The position numbers and the translations under genes are program-made. The notes below the pieces were generated by a model. The model was not told the DNA's origin. It did not search any database and was given only the letters and a program-made list of their open reading frames with translations. A stretch of 64,000 nucleotides of DNA from an uncultured Candidatus Saccharibacteria bacterium (GTDB lineage: Bacteria; Patescibacteriota; UBA1384; XYA2-FULL-43-10; CAINNR01). Positions 2,017-47,163 of the stretch are shown here, one piece after another. Location: contig CAYRLY010000001.1 of assembly GCA_964425445.1 (NCBI GenBank), positions 5,537 to 69,536 of the forward strand. Reading direction: 5' to 3'. Within the stretch, counting starts at the first letter, position 1. Each line of letters starts with the position of its first letter.

Positions 2017-3346
2017 AGCGCAGGTAATCACTATCGTTTTGCTTTTAATCTCTTCTTTGTCAGTGTTTTTTTTATTATTTTATTATTCAAGGCCTGAACC
2101 AGTCGAAATTTCTGATCGACCGCTGGTATTAGTATCTTTTCTTTACGAACATGGGGAAAAGGATTTAGCTAAAAATCAGAGAGAAAAAAATTTTCAGAGT
2201 GCCGAAAATCTCTACCGCATTATCACCGGTAATTCGGAAGTAATCGACCTGACTGAAGACATATCGGCTTCCAAATATGTAGACAGGTCATTTTCTTTTG
2301 CTTTCCCATTAGAACAATTTATCTCTACAGTTGATTTGTCACGAGAGGAAAACAATAATAATTTTAGTTACAGTCGAGCGCTAGAAGACAGTTCGGTGGA
2401 AAAGTTTGTATACGTTGACCAAGAAAAGAATTATGATATTTATTTTAAAACTAAAAATCATTCCGACACTTTGATAGTCAATGGAGAAAAAAAATCTGCG
2501 ATAAATTCATTCTCTGATTGGAGGATGGTTGGCAACTACTTGTCTGGAGAAAATAATACTATCACTTTCAAATCCGCTGATCAATATGATCAAGTAGTTG
2601 AAGTGGTTTTGGTTATTGACGAGGAAATCCAAAACAAAGACAATCAAAGAGAATATAGTCTAAATTATAAAAACGGAAGTTACTGTTTCAATTTAAGTGG
2701 TAAAAATTATGCGATTACTCATAATCCGAAAAACATATTTTTATCACCGATATCCTGCAATGACAATTGTGAAAATCCGAAATTTATCTCATATTATCCG
2801 GCAGATAATGGTAGAGTCTCTTTTGATAAGAAATCAATTAATATTATCACTAACTCGGGCTACTATCGATTAAATAACTACAACTTCTCCCGAAATTTAT
2901 TGGCATCGATTCTCATATTGTTTTTTGATCTCTTTATAATTTTATTGATCATAAATAAAGATTTCAAAAGGGGTGTTGTTCATTTTTTGAATGATTCGAA
3001 ATATGTTCTTAAAAAATTTTTTTCCGGAAACAAAATCCAAATTAGTAAAATAATAATATTAAATTTAATACTATTTATCTTGCGATTTATTTTGATATTT
3101 AGACCGTATCTCTCAATGACGCTAATTATTTTGATAAATGTTTTCTTGCTCTGGTGGTTTTTTCGATCAAAAAAATTGCTTTCGGTTGTGGCAATTTTGT
3201 TTTTGCTAATAGCTGCATCATTAAACAGTTTATTTCTGTTCGAGAATCTAGTTGAAAAACTTGCAACCGGTATTATTTTCCTGATAGTTTTTATAATACT
3301 CGAATCTCTAATTAATATAATTGACGATTCCCCTAACCAATATTGA
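2000..3346 (+). CDS. membrane protein, hypothetical (N-terminal TM anchor, Asn-rich extracytoplasmic middle, multi-TM C-terminus)
   Basis: ORF track; hydrophobicity pattern; overlaps the upstream gene stop, consistent with an operon. Confidence 0.4.
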   Translation: MTMKFKAQVITIVLLLISSLSVFFLLFYYSRPEPVEISDRPLVLVSFLYEHGEKDLAKNQREKNFQSAENLYRIITGNSEVIDLTEDISASKYVDRSFSFAFPLEQFISTVDLSREENNNNFSYSRALEDSSVEKFVYVDQEKNYDIYFKTKNHSDTLIVNGEKKSAINSFSDWRMVGNYLSGENNTITFKSADQYDQVVEVVLVIDEEIQNKDNQREYSLNYKNGSYCFNLSGKNYAITHNPKNIFLSPISCNDNCENPKFISYYPADNGRVSFDKKSINIITNSGYYRLNNYNFSRNLLASILILFFDLFIILLIINKDFKRGVVHFLNDSKYVLKKFFSGNKIQISKIIILNLILFILRFILIFRPYLSMTLIILINVFLLWWFFRSKKLLSVVAILFLLIAASLNSLFLFENLVEKLATGIIFLIVFIILESLINIIDDSPNQY

Positions 3347-3355
3347 TACATTAAG

Positions 3356-4312
3356 ATGAAAAAAGTAAACATATCGGTGATCATCCCGGTTTATAATGAA
3401 GCGGAGAATATCAATTCTCTTTATTCGGAGTTGAAGGAGGTTTTTGCTCTGACCGATCGCAAACACGAAATTATTTTTGTTAATGATGCCTCCAGAGATA
3501 AGACGTTGGCCGAATTAGAAAAAATTGCCGCCAAAGATAAGCAGGTTGTGGTCATTGATTTTATTCGCAACTTCGGCCAGACGGCGGCGCTTTCGGCCGG
3601 AATTGATAACTCTGTCGGCGAAATTATTATCCCGATGGATGGCGATGGCCAGAATGATCCAGCGGATATTCCGAAATTGGTGCAGAAGATCGACGAAGGA
3701 TTTGCAGTAGTTTCCGGTTGGCGCAAGAACAGGAAAGACGCCTTCATTCGAGTTTTACCCTCTCAAATCGCCAATTGGTTAATCAGGAAGATAACCGGAG
3801 TAAAAATTCATGACAACGGCTGTTCGCTCAAGGCCTATCGCCGCGAGGTAATTGATGGCGTTCAGCTTTATGGTGAGATGCACCGCTTTATCTCTGTCTA
3901 TGCCTCCTGGTCCGGTGGTAGGATCGCCGAGATTGTCGTCAACCACCGTCCGAGAACTTGCGGCAAAAGCAAATATGGTTTTTCCCGAATTTTTAAAGTT
4001 GTGCTTGACCTTCTGGTTATCCGCTTTCTCCATAAGTATATCTCCCGGCCGATTCACTTTTTCGGCAAATACGGGTTTTGGGCGATATTTGTTTCAATAG
4101 TTTTTTCTGCCTGGTCAATCTATCTAAAATTATTCCAAGATCTTTCAATCAATCGTACGCCGTTGCCGGTACTTTCATCGATGTTTTTAATCGTCGGACT
4201 TCAGTTAATATTAACCGGCGTTTTGGCCGAACTCCTGACTCGCACCTACTTCGAGTCACAGGGCAGAAAAGCATATAAAATAAAAAAGATAATTAATGGC
4301 AAAAAAAGCTAA
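3356..4312 (+). CDS. GT2 family polyprenol-phosphate glycosyltransferase (dolichyl-phosphate mannose synthase / ArnC / GtrB-like)
   Basis: N-terminal VSVIIPVYNEAENI motif, DGD(G) motif and two C-terminal TM helices typical of this family. Confidence 0.8.
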   Translation: MKKVNISVIIPVYNEAENINSLYSELKEVFALTDRKHEIIFVNDASRDKTLAELEKIAAKDKQVVVIDFIRNFGQTAALSAGIDNSVGEIIIPMDGDGQNDPADIPKLVQKIDEGFAVVSGWRKNRKDAFIRVLPSQIANWLIRKITGVKIHDNGCSLKAYRREVIDGVQLYGEMHRFISVYASWSGGRIAEIVVNHRPRTCGKSKYGFSRIFKVVLDLLVIRFLHKYISRPIHFFGKYGFWAIFVSIVFSAWSIYLKLFQDLSINRTPLPVLSSMFLIVGLQLILTGVLAELLTRTYFESQGRKAYKIKKIINGKKS

Positions 4313-5267
4313 AACAATTTTAGTTACCGGCTCTGCTGGCTTTATCGGCTTTCATTTAGCAAAGAAACTTCTTGAAGAAGGTGTGGATGTTGTTGGCATT
4401 GATAATTTAAATGATTATTATGATCCGAAATTAAAGACTGATCGTAACAAAATACTGAAAAGCCATGAAAACTATACTTTTCTTAAAGGCGATCTTGCTG
4501 ATGAAAAGTTTATTACTCAACTATTTAAAAAATTTAAATTTGACCAGATCTGTCACTTAGCGGCCCAAGCTGGTGTGCGCTACAGCATTGAAAATCCAGC
4601 CGTTTACATTCAATCAAATATAGTCGGCTTTGCTAATTTGATTGAAGCGACAAAAAACGCCGGCATTAGGAATTTTGTTTATGCTTCTTCAAGTTCAGTC
4701 TACGGCAATAGTGCAAAAGCGAAATTTTCAGTCAAAGATCGCACTGATGATCCGATCTCTCTCTATGCGGCGACGAAAAAAGCCGATGAGCTTATCGCCT
4801 ACACTTATAATCATTTATTTGGATTAAACTGCACGGGTTTGCGTTTTTTTACGGTTTATGGCCCTTGGGGCCGACCGGACATGGCGCCTTTTAAATTTAC
4901 TGGGCGGATTATTGCTGGCAAAGAGATTGAGGTTTACAACTTTGGTAAGATGAAAAGGGACTTCACCTACATCGACGACATTGTTTCCGGAATTATTGCC
5001 GCCCTAAGACGCCCCAGGGGCTTCAAGATTTATAATCTTGGCAATAACCGACCGGTGACCCTAAACCGTTTTATCAAATCTATAGAGGCTGCCTGTGGGC
5101 AAAAAGCGAAGATTAAATACTTGCCGCTACAACCGGGAGATGTTTTGAAAACCGCCGCTGATATTTCCGAATCAAAAAAGGATTTAAAGTTTTCGCCGAA
5201 GATAGATATCGAAGAGGGAATAAGAAAATTTGTTGATTGGTATAAAGAGTATTATGGCAAAAAATAA
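4296..5267 (+). CDS. NAD-dependent epimerase/dehydratase (UDP-glucuronate/UDP-glucose 4-epimerase-like)
   Basis: ILVTGSAGFIGFH Rossmann motif and YAATK catalytic motif (SDR extended family). Confidence 0.8.
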   Translation: MAKKAKTILVTGSAGFIGFHLAKKLLEEGVDVVGIDNLNDYYDPKLKTDRNKILKSHENYTFLKGDLADEKFITQLFKKFKFDQICHLAAQAGVRYSIENPAVYIQSNIVGFANLIEATKNAGIRNFVYASSSSVYGNSAKAKFSVKDRTDDPISLYAATKKADELIAYTYNHLFGLNCTGLRFFTVYGPWGRPDMAPFKFTGRIIAGKEIEVYNFGKMKRDFTYIDDIVSGIIAALRRPRGFKIYNLGNNRPVTLNRFIKSIEAACGQKAKIKYLPLQPGDVLKTAADISESKKDLKFSPKIDIEEGIRKFVDWYKEYYGKK

Positions 5268-6372
5268 AACCAAAATTTTATTTTTAAATTATGAATTCCC
5301 ACCGCTAGGAGGTGGAGCAGGTAATGCAACTAAATATTTATTTTTAGAATTTGCTAAACAAGAAGATCTAGAAATCGATCTAATCACCAGCTCGACCGAC
5401 AAGTTTAAAATTGAGAAATTTGCCAAAAATATTCGCGTCCATTATCTCGATATTGGGAAAAAGGGTAATATTCATTATCAAAGCAACAGTGATCTTTTAA
5501 AATATAGCTGGAAGGCTTATTTTTACGGAAAAGGTCTAATAAAAAAGAAAAAATTTGATTTGACCCACGCTTTTTTCGGTATCCCCTGTGGCTATATCGC
5601 GATGAAACTAGGACTGCCGTATATTGTTTCTCTTCGTGGCAGTGATGTGCCGTTTTATAATCCCAGATTTGCAAAACTAGACAAGCTGGTTTTTCATCGA
5701 TTGTCGCGACGGATCTGGCGGCGGGCGAGAGCGGTAATCGCCAACTCCGAAGATCTAAAAGGATTAGCGATGAAAACTTTCGCGGGTGGGATAGGCGTGA
5801 TTCCTAATGGTGTTGATACCAGCGAATTTAAGCCATTAAAAAACAAAAAAATATCAAACAAGATTCGTTTGATCTCCACCGGTCGTCTTATTGCGCGGAA
5901 AGGTTATCAATATTTGATTCCGGCGTTTAAAGGTTTGAAAAATGTCGAGTTAATTTTGGTTGGTGGTGGTGATCTGCGTAGTGAGCTTGATGAATTAGCG
6001 AGAAAAAATCAGGTAAAAGTCAATTTTGCTGGTGAAGTCAAACATGATGAAATCGTGAAATATCTCCAAAACTCGGATATTTTTGTTCTCCCTTCGCTCA
6101 ACGAGGGGATGAGCAACTCGATACTTGAAGCGATGTCCTGTGGCTTGCCGATAATTACCACTAACACTGGGGGCAGCAAAGAATTGATTGATGGGAATGG
6201 GTTTGTTTTTAAAAAAAGATCAATTGCTTCAATTAAAAAAACGCTGGAAAGATATTTAAAATCACGAGATTTAATTCGAAAACATGGCGAAAAATCACGG
6301 GGAATTGTCCAAGATATGAGCTGGGAAAATGTCTCAAATAAATATAAGAAAATTTATGATCAACTGGCGTAA
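5254..6372 (+). CDS. GT4 family glycosyltransferase
   Basis: C-terminal EGMSNSILEAMSCGLPIITT motif (GT4 E-x7-E region). The ORF track start at 5230 is also possible. Confidence 0.75.
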   Translation: MAKNKTKILFLNYEFPPLGGGAGNATKYLFLEFAKQEDLEIDLITSSTDKFKIEKFAKNIRVHYLDIGKKGNIHYQSNSDLLKYSWKAYFYGKGLIKKKKFDLTHAFFGIPCGYIAMKLGLPYIVSLRGSDVPFYNPRFAKLDKLVFHRLSRRIWRRARAVIANSEDLKGLAMKTFAGGIGVIPNGVDTSEFKPLKNKKISNKIRLISTGRLIARKGYQYLIPAFKGLKNVELILVGGGDLRSELDELARKNQVKVNFAGEVKHDEIVKYLQNSDIFVLPSLNEGMSNSILEAMSCGLPIITTNTGGSKELIDGNGFVFKKRSIASIKKTLERYLKSRDLIRKHGEKSRGIVQDMSWENVSNKYKKIYDQLA

Positions 6373-7699
6373 ACCAACAATACTGGCTTTGCTTTATATC
6401 TCCGGAAGTAAAATTCCGCGCAATCTTAAAATAATTCAAAAACTTGCCAAAAGCAGTAAAAGAGAGATAAGGAAATATCAAAAGGAAAAGCTAAAGAAAC
6501 TTCTATCCCATGCTTATGAAAATGTCCCTTACTATCAACGAGTGCTAAAAGAATCTGGTGTGATTACAAAATCAGGGGAAGTTGATCTGAAAAAATTCTC
6601 CAATATACCAATTCTAACAAAAGATATTATCCGCAAAGAGGGTAAAAATTTATACTCCAAAGATTATAAAAGAAGGGGATATTATAAAAATACCTCCGGT
6701 GGATCGACTGGCGAGCCGGTGGAATTTATACAGGACAAAAAATATTCCGATTGGAATGATGCGACAAAAATATTCTATTTTAATTCCCTAGGTCATGATT
6801 GGGGTGATCCGGAGATAAAATTATGGGGGTCGGATCGGGATATTATAAAAGGTAATTTATCTTTGAAAGATAGAGTGGCTAATTATCTTTATAATCGTCG
6901 TTTTTTTAATTGCTATAATTTCTCAAAAAATAATATGACCTCTTTATTGCGTTTGCATAACAGTTATAGACCAGTGGGATACTGGTCATATATGGAGGCT
7001 GTGAGTGAATTCGCTGATTTTATTGTCGAAAACAATTTGAAAGTGTTCAGCCCTAAATATATTGTATCGACCATTGGTCCATTGGAAGATAATGTCAGAA
7101 AAAAAATTTCCCAGACATTCTCTTGCCCTGTATTTGACCAATACGGGTCGCGAGAAGTGGGATTTATTGCGGCTGAGTTTCCCAAAAGTGAAGGGAAGTT
7201 ATTCTTTCCCTGGTTTAATTATGTTGAGAATACTAATGGGCTAGTAAAAAATGTCATTGTAACTAATTTGGCCAATTTTTCAATGCCACTTATTCGTTAT
7301 GACATTGGTGATGCCGCAATAATTAATTATGGGAAGATTAAACGATTGTGTGGTCGCACATTAGGTTTTTTTTACAAAAAAGATGGGTCATTGATCCACA
7401 CTCACTTTTTGGTTCAAACGTTGTTTTTTGTTGAATGGATAAAACGTTTTCAGATTATCCAGCCTAATTTTGGGTCTATTGAAATTAAAATAGAAAAAAA
7501 AGAAAATGTGTTAGCCAGCCGAAGGGGTCAGCAAGAAATACTGCAAAAGGTTAAAAAACTAACTGGGGATGAGATTGAATGTAAGATAAAATTTGTAAAA
7601 AGAATATGTTCGCAAAAAAATGGGAAATATACATATACAATTTGTAAAATACCTAAAGAAGATTTAAAGAAGCTAAAGGAAAAAATAGATGGAAGTTAA
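6329..7699 (+). CDS. CapK / PaaK-like adenylate-forming enzyme (coenzyme F390 synthetase family)
   Basis: TSGGSTGEPV adenylation motif with family-typical length; sits inside the glycan locus. The start may be an internal Met at about 6356. Confidence 0.65.
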   Translation: MSQINIRKFMINWRKPTILALLYISGSKIPRNLKIIQKLAKSSKREIRKYQKEKLKKLLSHAYENVPYYQRVLKESGVITKSGEVDLKKFSNIPILTKDIIRKEGKNLYSKDYKRRGYYKNTSGGSTGEPVEFIQDKKYSDWNDATKIFYFNSLGHDWGDPEIKLWGSDRDIIKGNLSLKDRVANYLYNRRFFNCYNFSKNNMTSLLRLHNSYRPVGYWSYMEAVSEFADFIVENNLKVFSPKYIVSTIGPLEDNVRKKISQTFSCPVFDQYGSREVGFIAAEFPKSEGKLFFPWFNYVENTNGLVKNVIVTNLANFSMPLIRYDIGDAAIINYGKIKRLCGRTLGFFYKKDGSLIHTHFLVQTLFFVEWIKRFQIIQPNFGSIEIKIEKKENVLASRRGQQEILQKVKKLTGDEIECKIKFVKRICSQKNGKYTYTICKIPKEDLKKLKEKIDGS

Positions 7700-12121: not shown

Positions 12122-12230
12122 CACATTATCAAGAGAGACGTTAGGGAATTGGCCCATTGAGCGTCCAGCAACCATCATTCACATAAGAGTGAACGGTGCT
12201 AAGTCCAAGCCGGATGGCAAGATAATTATT
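12122..12230 (+). promoter_or_regulatory. SAM-I (S-box) riboswitch in the metK leader
   Basis: Match to the SAM-I core: UAUCAAGAGAGACGUUAGGGAAUUGGCCCAUUGAGCGUCCAGCAACC ... GGUGCUAAGUCCAAGCC. The P1 3' strand GAUAAUUAUU pairs with the 5' AUUAUC. Confidence 0.8.
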
Positions 12231-38533: not shown

Positions 38534-39016
38534 ATGAAAGATTTATTTGAAAAATACAGCAATTGGATCGGACTGGGACTGATAATTTTATCGCTCATTG
38601 GTGGGACATTATTAATAATGAAAAAAGGTACTCTGGCGGGGGAATCGAACAAAAATTCGCTGATGGAAGAAAAAAATCAAAAAATCTCTGAACTTGAAAA
38701 TAAAATTACTGATTTAGAAGGCCAAATTGAACAGTTAAAATCTGCCACACCGTCTGCGGATTCACAACCGGCGACTTCCCCATCTCCGTCGGCATCTCTG
38801 ACGCCTACTCCAAGTCAAGCTGCCGGCAAGATTAATATTAATACTGCAACTGTCGTTCAGCTTGACTCACTGCCAGGTATTGGCCCGGTCTACGCCCAGC
38901 GGATAATTGATTACCGAACTGCTAATGGCCCTTTCACCTCAATAGACCAGGTACAGAATGTAAAAGGTATAGGCCCGAAGACTTTGGAAAAATTTCGTGA
39001 TCTAGTGACGATTTAG
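38534..39016 (+). CDS. comEA: ComEA-family helix-hairpin-helix DNA-binding / competence protein
   Basis: N-terminal TM helix; C-terminal INTATVVQLDSLPGIGPVYAQRIIDYRTANGPFTSIDQVQNVKGIGPKTLEK double HhH. Confidence 0.85.
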   Translation: MKDLFEKYSNWIGLGLIILSLIGGTLLIMKKGTLAGESNKNSLMEEKNQKISELENKITDLEGQIEQLKSATPSADSQPATSPSPSASLTPTPSQAAGKININTATVVQLDSLPGIGPVYAQRIIDYRTANGPFTSIDQVQNVKGIGPKTLEKFRDLVTI

Positions 39017-39057
39017 TCTGGACATTTTGGACAATAACGGGTACAATTTTGCTGTTT

Positions 39058-39144
39058 GGGCGTATGGTGGAATTGGTAGACACGCATGCCTTAGGAGCAT
39101 GTGGAGTAAAATCCATGGGGGTTCGAGTCCCTCTACGCCCACCA
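39058..39144 (+). tRNA. tRNA-Leu (anticodon TAG)
   Basis: 87-nt cloverleaf with acceptor gggcgta/tacgccc, anticodon loop cuUAGga, long variable arm, T-arm ggggg-ttcgagt-ccctc and encoded CCA. Confidence 0.85.
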
Positions 39145-39203
39145 AGCTGAGGAAGTAATTCGTTTAGTTTTTCGGCTTGGTGAGTGCAATATTTCGGGGA
39201 CGA

Positions 39204-39292
39204 GAAAGCCGGAGGCGCGACTGGCGCCGAGGCGGGGTCGAGCGAAATTTCAGCAGAAATTTACGCGTGACCGAGTCCCTCTACGCCCACCA
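39204..39292 (+). other. conserved GC-rich structured element (copy A) ending in a 21-nt direct repeat of the tRNA-Leu(TAG) 3' end. Possibly a miniature integrative element, an att remnant or a tRNA-linked small RNA.
   Basis: gaaagccggag + hairpin + gaggcggggtcga + hairpin with a CAGCAG loop + gtgacc + cgagtccctctacgcccacca. The last block is identical to 39124-39144. Confidence 0.6.
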
Positions 39293-39348
39293 ATTTGAGA
39301 AAAAAACTGGATTTATTCCAGTTTTTGTTATTTTGTTATAATAAATGC

Positions 39349-39537
39349 ATGGACGATAGTGTTTTGTCTGACAACGATCTCGATGAGATCGATGACGAAT
39401 ATTACGAAAAGCTGGAAGAAGAGCTACTGGAAGAAGCCGATAAATCAGACCACAAAGAGATGCCGGTTTCCGGCAGAAGTGTTTTTGAGATTGAACGCCT
39501 GAAAAGAAAGAAACAAGAGGACAGAGACAAGGATTAG
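39349..39537 (+). CDS. small highly acidic protein (62 aa), hypothetical
   Basis: ATG just after TTGTTATAAT; preceded by the terminator hairpin 39303-39330. The ORF track's upstream extension at 39295 overlaps the terminator and is rejected. Confidence 0.3.
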   Translation: MDDSVLSDNDLDEIDDEYYEKLEEELLEEADKSDHKEMPVSGRSVFEIERLKRKKQEDRDKD

Positions 39538-46629: not shown

Positions 46630-46647
46630 TTTATTTTGTGGAAATAG

Positions 46648-46734
46648 GGGCGAATGGTGGAATTGGTAGACACGCAGCGTTCAGAACGCTGTGGCCGCAA
46701 GGTCGTGGAGGTTCAAGTCCTCTTTCGCCCACCA
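46648..46734 (+). tRNA. tRNA-Leu (anticodon CAG)
   Basis: 87-nt cloverleaf with acceptor gggcgaa/ttcgccc, anticodon loop uuCAGaa and long variable arm. Confidence 0.85.
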
Positions 46735-46758
46735 AATTTTAGAAAAGTAATAGGACTT

Positions 46759-46848
46759 GAAAGCCGGAGTCCGCCATGGCGGACGAGGCGGGGTCGACGA
46801 ATTCGCCAGCAGACGAATATCGGTGACCAAGTCCTCTTTCGCCCACCA
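46759..46848 (+). other. conserved GC-rich structured element (copy B) ending in a 21-nt direct repeat of the tRNA-Leu(CAG) 3' end
   Basis: gaaagccggag + tccgccatggcgga hairpin + gaggcggggtcga + hairpin with a CAGCAG loop + gtgacc + caagtcctctttcgcccacca (identical to 46714-46734). Shares its core and hairpin architecture with copy A at 39204-39292. Confidence 0.6.
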
Positions 46849-46955
46849 AGCTTTACATTTAAATTGAATTTTGTTAAGATACAGACAATAAAATCATTAA
46901 ACTAGCTTGAATAAGAATAATTATTATCTCGGGCTAGTTCCGGGATTTTTTGTTC

Positions 46956-47033: not shown

Positions 47034-47120
47034 GCCGAGGTGGTGGAATTGGTAGACACGCAGCCTTGAGGTGGCTGTGCCCGCAAGGGCGTGGAGGTTC
47101 AAGTCCTCTCTTCGGCACCA
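47034..47120 (+). tRNA. tRNA-Leu (anticodon GAG)
   Basis: 87-nt cloverleaf, 1 nt after tRNA-Val, with acceptor gccgagg/cttcggc and anticodon loop uuGAGgu. Confidence 0.85.
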
Positions 47121-47163
47121 TTCAACTCGCACTGCTCGCTCATGGCAGGCCAAAAATTTATTT

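Follow-up and report, generated by a model that had tools for sequence, protein, structure and literature searches.

A short structured element behind tRNA and tmRNA genes of Patescibacteria that ends in a copy of the 3′ part of its host gene

The tRNA-Leu(TAG) locus of an uncultured Candidatus Saccharibacteria bacterium (GenBank assembly GCA_964425445.1, contig CAYRLY010000001.1) raises the question of why the 3′ end of a tRNA gene should recur, letter for letter, a short distance behind that gene and at the end of a folded segment without an open reading frame (ORF). The stretch of DNA analyzed, hereafter the window, comprises 64,000 nt (positions 5,537 to 69,536 of the contig), and the tRNA-Leu genes and the parts of the two element copies described below lie on its forward strand. 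Going by the relatives of its MiaA, the window stems from a Berkelbacteria-like member of the Patescibacteria. The tRNA gene at 39058–39144 is intact and has an encoded CCA (ARAGORN; 58.3 bits with the Rfam tRNA model), ending at the very base where the initial annotation, made from the letters of the DNA, had placed its end. An exact-repeat search found its final 21 nt, CGAGTCCCTCTACGCCCACCA, corresponding to tRNA positions C56–A76, exactly twice in the window: at 39124–39144, the left direct repeat, and at 39272–39292, the right repeat or tail. No second copy appeared in 100 shuffles of the window, and the identity noticed at the outset is real. The segment ending in this tail proved to belong to a widespread and apparently undescribed element of Patescibacteria, folded over ~85 nt and located behind tRNA and transfer-messenger RNA (tmRNA) genes.

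The first copy of the element (copy 1) lies within a 148-nt insert without ORF. The GC-rich block at 39204–39292 is as initially described and is separated from the tRNA by 59 nt, close to the ~60 nt estimated then. The element itself, however, starts before 39204, since the T-stem 3′ strand has its partner further upstream, in GGGGAC at 39196–39201, which serves as the 5′ arm of a closing helix, P0, and pairs with GUCCCU at 39275–39280, i.e., with tRNA positions 59–64 of the tail (fold prediction, alignment, and covariance model R1, see below). In the alignment fold, the interval 39204–39235 holds a GNRA-like GAAA junction, helix Pa (GCC/GGC), an internal loop GGA/GA, hairpin P1 (39214–39228, GGCGC/GCGCC), and a GG junction. 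Helix P2 follows at 39236–39272, according to both fold and covariation; it runs from GGUCG to GUGAC plus C56, has a bulged A at 39263 and a CAGCAG loop at 39251–39256, and closes with the pair G39236:C39272, the latter base being C56 of the tail. P1 and P2 are the two stem-loops that had been seen earlier. By contrast, gaggcggggtcga had wrongly been taken for the 5′ half of a T-arm, GAGGCGGGGUCG being the junction plus the base of P2; from the picture of a T-arm interrupted by an insert, the T-stem-like closing helix survives and the 5′ half assigned to it does not. The tail, identified by the repeat search and by the tails of the family, is read as a target-site duplication. Neither 39145–39292 nor the corresponding segment of the second copy (46735–46848) gave a cloverleaf with ARAGORN or RF00005, and only the tail and the T-stem-like P0 resemble tRNA.

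Directly 3′ of the CCA, a spacer hairpin, H0, is predicted at 39145–39177, and in the fold of the 148 nt its base is extended by pairing of the tRNA CACCA with UGGUG at 39178–39182. In the same fold, the 3′ end shared by tRNA and tail (CGC-C-CACCA) finds a complement in the segment UGGUGAGUG (39178–39186). This complementary segment is weak in copy 1 and long in other family members; family-wide, the duplex energy of the anti-3′-end segment was −9.0 with the cognate end against −7.5 with non-cognate ones (p = 9e-5). H0 itself is replaced by hairpins of other sequence in relatives, and the spacer of the related locus L001 differs and yet folds too.

The second copy is carried by tRNA-Leu(CAG) at 46647–46734 (ARAGORN starts the gene at 46648; acceptor pairing suggests 46647) and occupies 46735–46848, as seen in the comparison with copy 1. 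With model R1 the two copies scored 85 (copy 2) and 81.5 bits, the rest of the window giving no more than 11 bits. The copy 2 insert, 114 nt and likewise ORF-less, is shorter than that of copy 1 and consists of a 24-nt spacer without a hairpin, the arm AGGACUU (46752–46758), the core (46759–46827), and the tail (46828–46848), CAAGTCCTCTTTCGCCCACCA, identical to the last 21 nt of its own host. Between the two copies both hairpins show paired changes, and the compensatory changes noted by the initial annotation are present in P1, P2, and the closing helix; in the alignment, both sides were changed in 10 of the 15 pairs of P2. Its argument that the arrangement is not an accident was borne out: the structure is conserved, and the element is linked to the 3′ ends of tRNAs.

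A promoter-like site lies 5′ of each tRNA (for copy 1, TGGACA-17-TACAAT at 39019–39047, by consensus match), and terminator-like hairpins occur only after the elements, at 39302–39326 and 46926–46946; the former, found by a terminator search as an intrinsic-terminator-like hairpin 3′ of the tail, is probably the native terminator of the tRNA. As both copies stand between tRNA promoter and terminator, they are probably co-transcribed with the tRNA, and each tRNA plus element looks like a single transcription unit. A role as a T-box-like element or riboswitch for the downstream gene was rejected, given that a terminator follows the tail. Two of the eight tRNA genes in the window carry the element. 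The tRNA-Leu(GAG) gene at 47034–47120 (ARAGORN and locus comparison) lacks it in the genome of the window, and a copy stands at that site in loci L001 and L032. Behind this gene, the window has an additional 32-nt segment at 47123–47154, CAACTCGCACTGCTCGCTCATGGCAGGCCAAA, which L001 does not have, and trailers resembling TTCGACTC...CGCTCATGGC were seen 3′ of tRNAs or tails in L059, L090, L094, and L005; to judge by their sequences, these trailers may represent a second small repeat family.

The three-way junction was tested on an alignment of 48 diverse copies, and the fold was used to make model R1. From 5′ to 3′, the element comprises an optional hairpin, the 5′ arm, the three-way-junction core ending in GUGAC, and the tail from C56. 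P0 is formed by the arm, immediately 5′ of GAAAGCC, and the first ~7–10 nt past GUGAC+C; Pa (GCC/GGC) leads through the internal loop GGA/GA to hairpin P1, and P2 is long (GGUCG...(U)GUGACC), has a conserved bulge, an A, and often CAGCAG as its loop. Pairing was found in 93.4% of the cells concerned versus 74.4% in shuffles, 266 cells were changed on both sides versus 77 ± 7 in shuffles, and the covariation score was 0.53 versus 0.07–0.12 with slid partners. In hits outside the search pattern (see below), Pa covaries (GAC/GUC, GGC/GCC, AGC/GCU), and the 4-nt junction after P0 varies in a GNRA-like manner (GAAA, GAGA, GCGA, GCAA). G-U pairs that do not vary render the fold specific to the tRNA-sense strand. 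By eye, the loop varies as YANYAR, and the CAGCAG hairpin sits on P1 instead of P2 in L137, L199, L224, and L176; the loop as an anticodon mimic or fixed partner was dismissed on account of this variable sequence and position. Hammerhead, twister, hairpin, and hepatitis delta virus (HDV)-like topologies were also misfits, the junction strands being 4, 2, and 0 nt long and no pseudoknot being formed.

A subtype with an extra upstream hairpin, whose loop reads AACUGCUU, was observed in L013, L016, L022, L048, L056, L058, L073, L105, L110, L114, and L118. In this subtype, a segment further upstream, which the extra hairpin parts from the arm, pairs with the acceptor 3′ strand and the trailer, and the entire structure looks like the acceptor/T-arm half of a tRNA whose T-loop is replaced by the conserved core. 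The loop AACUGCUU is complementary to AGCAG of the CAGCAG loop in other copies, a match that may denote a kissing-loop or a shared protein site.

The distribution of the element was first assessed by an exact-core pattern, GAAAGCCGGA, 8–24 nt, GAGGCGGGGTC, embedded in the order GAAAGCCGGA-hairpin-GAGGCGGGGUCG-hairpin-GUGAC. It matched at least 120 metagenome stretches and at least 119 stretches of GTDB species genomes, where about five matches would be expected by chance in the genome collection (own arithmetic). Among the matches listed, the pattern-bearing genomes were nearly all Patescibacteria, including Saccharibacteria, Paceibacterota/Parcubacteria lineages, WWE3, and Berkelbacteria. The search with a covariance model proposed in the initial annotation was productive: R1 recognized 276 copies in the loci collected through pattern matches and relatives. 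Most of them (216, or 78%) lie no more than 300 nt downstream of a tRNA (208) or tmRNA (8) gene on the same strand; 15 stand at contig ends, and 45 have neither a tRNA nor a tmRNA. The hosts cover all amino-acid classes and more than 30 tRNA species plus tmRNA, each with its own matching repeat. Altogether, 209 of the 491 tRNA/tmRNA genes in the sampled loci carry the element, a proportion that refers to loci ascertained by the element itself.

In all informative cases, tails begin at tRNA C56, directly after GTG(A/G)C. Perfect repeats mostly measure 19–22 nt, whether or not CCA is encoded, and the few repeats of 30–66 nt belong to tandem or partly tandem copies or include the native terminator (L056). 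The arm is complementary to tRNA positions 57–65, sometimes reaching the 3′ end, and its energy with the copy's own tail was −6.8 kcal/mol versus −4.2 kcal/mol with the tails of other copies (p = 7e-13); its last base covaries with tRNA position 57 (C:G in 29 cases, U:A in 12). The first G of GGUC, which is invariant, is the pairing partner of C56, and the arm takes up the bases from position 57 on, so that P2 is stacked on P0 across the boundary between GUGAC and C56. In the modeled fold, this junction lies in a continuous stack on one 'template' strand, which is the geometry of a splint.

The two parts of the tail have different fates. Positions 56–65, which take part in P0, show no difference from the tRNA in 43 of 87 pairs, and the acceptor part is bimodal, with at least 7/8 identity in 41 copies and no more than 4/8, essentially random, in 42. 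Such bimodality would be expected of a neutral duplication that decays wherever the fold has no use for it. In drifted tails, the arm pairs with the tRNA version in 18 cases and only with the tail in 8, so copies started out with an arm complementary to their target. CCA is present in 8 tails though the tRNA gene in front has none, and it is missing from 26 tails, as it is from their genes; mature tRNA was therefore not the source of the latter tails. At the left junction, an RNA 3′ end is often met, be it CCA or, as in L056, a terminator end. Many spacer hairpins are terminator-like, and a hairpin duplicates the native terminator in only 7 of 50 cases (e.g., L056). One spacer-hairpin type (AAUGAU...AUCAUU) is common to elements behind Trp, Met, Ser, and Val tRNAs. 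No consistent promoter was recognized between spacer hairpin and core when the spacers were inspected by eye, unscored.

Among relatives, the presence of the element varies. Behind tRNA-Leu(CAG), it is found in the window, L001, and L246 (relatives at 96% or more), and the site is empty in L003, L005, and L249 (71–74% identity), where the homologous flank directly follows the tRNA; together with the tRNA-Leu(GAG) site, this one provides the empty sites that the initial annotation had proposed to look for. The copy behind tRNA-Leu(GAG) in L001 is near-identical to a tRNA-Leu(CAG) copy and yet has the Leu(GAG) tail. Decay is seen as well: a 169-nt remnant behind tRNA-Leu(TAG) in L003, ending in 19 nt of the tRNA and unrecognized by R1, is a decayed copy, L008 has a truncated second copy, and L119 has two copies in tandem, the second with a foreign tail. 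In a separate arrangement, L247 (4695–4900) and L248 (2506–2715) have a divergent tRNA-Leu(CAG) followed ~90 nt on by a 47-nt 3′ remnant of the window-type tRNA-Leu(CAG), spanning the variable arm to CCA, which suggests gene replacement leaving a displaced 3′ fragment. Contigs of close relatives also stop inside or just past the tRNA-Leu(CAG) element region (L246 at 3098, and the ends of L247–L250), which suggests that the element repeats break metagenome assemblies.

On balance, and with some reserve, this combination of anatomy, specificity, covariation, differences in presence, and decay is best explained by a family of non-autonomous insertion elements, ~90–150 nt long, structured, ORF-less, and specific for the 3′ part of tRNA/tmRNA genes, which duplicate their target and are guided by base pairing to the tRNA T-arm. 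Two of the wordings offered initially, a miniature non-autonomous element and a novel tRNA-linked structured RNA, both fit it. For the joining step, whether the element acts as RNA or as single-stranded DNA and whatever the source of the enzymatic activity, we infer the following course. The arm plus the first G of GGUC would act as a splint or guide on which the T-loop/T-stem 3′ strand of the target tRNA docks, the target being either a single-stranded gene strand or a transcript. The 3′ end of the element would then be joined to C56, and re-synthesis of the 3′ part of the tRNA would leave the direct repeat of ~21 nt. The joining activity might come from a gene at another place in the genome or from the folded core. 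As the tRNA stays intact, the insertion would be tolerated.

Several observations weigh against this explanation. No enzyme was found, the element having no ORF and no protein family recurring near it in 245 loci. Clustering of the 933 neighboring ORFs of these loci revealed no integrase, recombinase, transposase, reverse transcriptase, RtcB, or nuclease cluster; the top 10 clusters, judged from their sequences without a Pfam scan, looked like housekeeping genes (e.g., MiaA, RluD, CCA-adding enzyme, FtsH), the best of them occurring in 13 of the 245 loci, and the remaining clusters occurred in no more than 8. A target duplication of ~21 bp fits no standard transposase, and the repeats of 30–66 nt could reflect tandem copies instead. 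The direction of change is deduced from few relatives, and deletion between direct repeats could also make 'empty' sites. Core similarity within one locus (0.752) was only marginally higher than that between genomes (0.731, p = 0.07), and recent intragenomic bursts are therefore not evident; co-inheritance with a tRNA type, sought in the same comparison, gave no significant signal either. The terminator-like spacer hairpins would limit transcription of the core, which could fold as RNA or as single-stranded DNA. Finally, the phylum-wide conservation of the core and the occupancy of 209 of 491 genes would also fit a host function.

Such a function might be that of a host-beneficial non-coding RNA co-transcribed with the tRNA, its three-way junction being a protein- or ligand-binding domain and its arm and tail a switch able to sense or imitate the 3′ strand of the tRNA (3′-end processing, quality control, or a decoy for a nuclease or integrase), with the tail identity maintained by selection or gene conversion. 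We regard this as rather unlikely, even if a core almost invariant across Saccharibacteria, Paceibacterota, WWE3, and Berkelbacteria, the location of both window copies within tRNA transcription units as defined by promoter and terminator positions, the high occupancy, and the GNRA-like junction variants and G-U pairs typical of RNA are all in its favor, as is the arm in drifted copies, matching the tRNA more often than the tail (18 against 8). Moreover, reduced genomes of such size carry little junk. It is hard to reconcile a host function with a presence that differs between strains at 96% protein identity, with sites empty in relatives at 71–79%, with a decayed L003 copy and truncated and tandem copies elsewhere, or with an acceptor part lost in half of the tails; only two of the eight window tRNAs carry the element, and terminator-like hairpins often separate tRNA and core. 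An improbable alternative is that the core is a new small ribozyme cleaving and/or ligating between GUGAC and C56, which would release or exchange the 21-nt tRNA 3′ fragment or insert itself at 55/56 in a reverse-splicing-like reaction, later turned into DNA. Modeled in this way, the ~70-nt three-way junction would be a catalytic RNA guided by its arm to the 3′ strand of the T-arm in any tRNA or tmRNA and cutting or joining between U55 and C56, for which we see a small chance. If it were true, the element would be a minimal 'homing' RNA writing itself behind tRNA genes and leaving the C56-to-3′-end duplication or, alternatively, a generator or exchanger of tRNA 3′ fragments. The compact three-way junction with invariant junction nucleotides, the substrate-helix-like arm covarying with the tail, and a boundary at a single phosphodiester in every copy speak for catalysis, along with the 8 tails bearing a CCA absent from the gene in front and a left junction often at an RNA 3′ end (CCA or the terminator end, L056); many self-cleaving ribozymes ride on repeated elements. 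The site, however, lies in a continuous stacked helix, atypical for in-line attack, few conserved nucleotides are unpaired, no Rfam ribozyme matched, 26 tails are as CCA-less as their genes, and no reverse transcriptase was linked in the 245 loci.

The attL/attR signature invoked in the initial annotation would have been left by an integrase element that inserted in the T-loop of the tRNA gene and was later deleted to ~130 bp. This reading is very unlikely by now and largely refuted. Islands targeting tRNA genes classically share an identity block that extends from T-loop to 3′ end, direct repeats of the 3′ part of the target tRNA do flank the insert (21 nt here, from C56 family-wide), and tRNA-Leu(TAG) is a real integration hotspot. 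In L002 (96% MiaA identity), a 3.9-kb insertion at 3109–7080, corresponding to window position ~39145, lies between tRNA-Leu(TAG) and the structured element, nested in the spacer; it encodes a large serine recombinase of 621 aa together with a Big-domain protein and is a genuine integrative element using the tRNA 3′ end as attB. Rather than by the 21-mer, as expected for a full-length relative, this insertion is bounded by a different 13-nt core, ACGCCCACCAGAC, and it sits inside the spacer. All ~276 copies of the family are short and ORF-less, with the same structured core, no larger relative, and no linked integrase. They use more than 30 host tRNA species, each matching its repeat, where one integrase lineage would have one target; near-identical L001 cores have different tails, and had a crossover carried the element from Leu(CAG) to Leu(GAG), a hybrid tRNA would have resulted, of which none was seen. 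A circle of 110–150 bp would also be an implausible integrase substrate. As for a repeat due to chance or a tandem tRNA pseudogene in decay, the tRNA-Leu 3′ remnants of L247 and L248 do persist in the lineage, but the 21-mer pair was reproduced in 0 of 100 shuffles, the core is not tRNA-like to ARAGORN or the Rfam tRNA model, and it recurs with covariation in hundreds of genomes, which leaves this explanation next to no probability. At L005 (5405–7019), which belongs to a Berkelbacteria relative, tRNA-Leu(TAG) is inverted relative to miaA and adjoins a 387-aa serine recombinase, which was counted for the attachment-site reading, and restriction-modification genes; this locus appears to be a recombination hotspot.

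No family of Rfam 15 reached the gathering threshold for the element anywhere in the window, and a cmscan at E ≤ 10 over 39000–39400 and over L056 3640–4000 returned only the tRNA itself and noise. A pattern scan of IMG/VR and blastn against phage and plasmid records gave no match either, so the element is not evidently phage- or plasmid-borne. A full-text literature search of incomplete coverage, including the core sequence as a text string, found no description of it, the sole related paper dealing with group I introns at position 35/36 of Patescibacteria tRNAs (PMC13011429).

With islands and prophages that integrate in T-loops by tyrosine or serine integrases, the element shares the tRNA/tmRNA targets, the direct repeats from T-loop to 3′ end, and a tRNA kept functional. 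It differs from them in having neither integrase nor cargo in its 90–150 nt, in a repeat with a constant start at C56 that fits each of more than 30 different host tRNAs, and in the covarying three-way junction abutting the right repeat. Miniature transposable elements with inverted repeats (MITEs) and REP/BIME, Correia, and RUP repeats are likewise short, non-coding, multi-copy, folded, strain-variable, and dependent on functions in trans. The element is as small, non-coding, and multi-copy as MITEs and has a target-site duplication, if an unusually long one (19–22 nt). It has no terminal inverted repeats, the left end being variable and the right end always GUGAC, and no transposase cluster was found in the 245 loci; unlike these small repeats, it has no related insertion sequence (IS), uses one phosphodiester of tRNA genes, and has a core conserved phylum-wide.

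HDV-like 'theta' ribozymes adjoin phage tRNAs, and retroviral primer-binding sites complement the tRNA 3′ end. The former resemble the element as structured RNAs immediately downstream of tRNAs; the element, however, has no HDV-like nested double pseudoknot and no Rfam hit and is absent from the viral collections searched. With the latter, the element has complementarity to the tRNA 3′ end in common, in its arm and its anti-3′-end segment; here the complementarity is masked by the sense copy, and no reverse transcriptase is linked. TnpB omega-RNAs of IS200/IS605/IS607 also combine a conserved right-end scaffold with ~20 nt of flanking target sequence. The scaffold of the element is unrelated and much shorter, no tnpB or tnpA gene or IS ends were found by neighbor clustering in the 245 loci, and the flank duplicates the gene in front, so that a guide would hit the intact tRNA gene. 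Introns of groups I and II, with guide or exon-binding/intron-binding site (EBS-IBS) targeting, offer a likeness only in the way of working, i.e., a short arm pairing beside the insertion point and a nucleotide-exact junction; Patescibacteria tRNA genes do host group I introns (PMC13011429). In contrast to introns, the core of the element is ~70 nt, has no Rfam intron match and no intron-encoded protein, and the host gene is duplicated and not interrupted. As none of the known families accommodates it and the nearest analogues share one trait each, the element is rated outside the known kinds.

Should the preferred explanation, the target-duplicating insertion element, be true, an unannotated structured element would be present in hundreds to thousands of copies in the genomes of Patescibacteria, which rank among the most reduced ones known, and would recognize a universal feature of RNA genes, the T-arm, by base pairing. 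Insertion at a single defined phosphodiester with the tRNA left intact would be a new way of target choice and duplication by a tiny protein-less element. Possible implications range from a new ribozyme or RNA-protein machinery and programmable insertion at chosen sequences to the evolution of tRNA genes in Patescibacteria. Assembly and annotation may be concerned as well, with the contigs of relatives breaking at element repeats and tRNA 3′ fragments being misread. Model R1 is a ready covariance model for annotating this family, which is missing from Rfam.

Apart from the main host range, strong matches to R1 (76 and 56 bits) were obtained on two contigs of Elusimicrobia metagenome-assembled genomes (L132, L145), which could result from mis-binning or from transfer beyond Patescibacteria; the weak matches (24–26 bits) in Pseudobdellovibrionaceae and Verrucomicrobiae bins (L164, L197) are probably due to chance. 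Copies linked to tmRNA were observed in L025, L061, L035 (8706), and L067, the arm of L025 being complementary to 16 nt of the tmRNA 3′ end. An extra small hairpin inside the tail, after A58, was present in L011, L014, and L025.

In the window itself, the interval between the terminator of copy 1 and miaA holds a small acidic ORF at 39349–39537, which is conserved (62 aa in relatives) and was also found in L001–L006. A SAM-I riboswitch at 12123–12228 (52.2 bits with Rfam, above the gathering score) is unrelated to the element.

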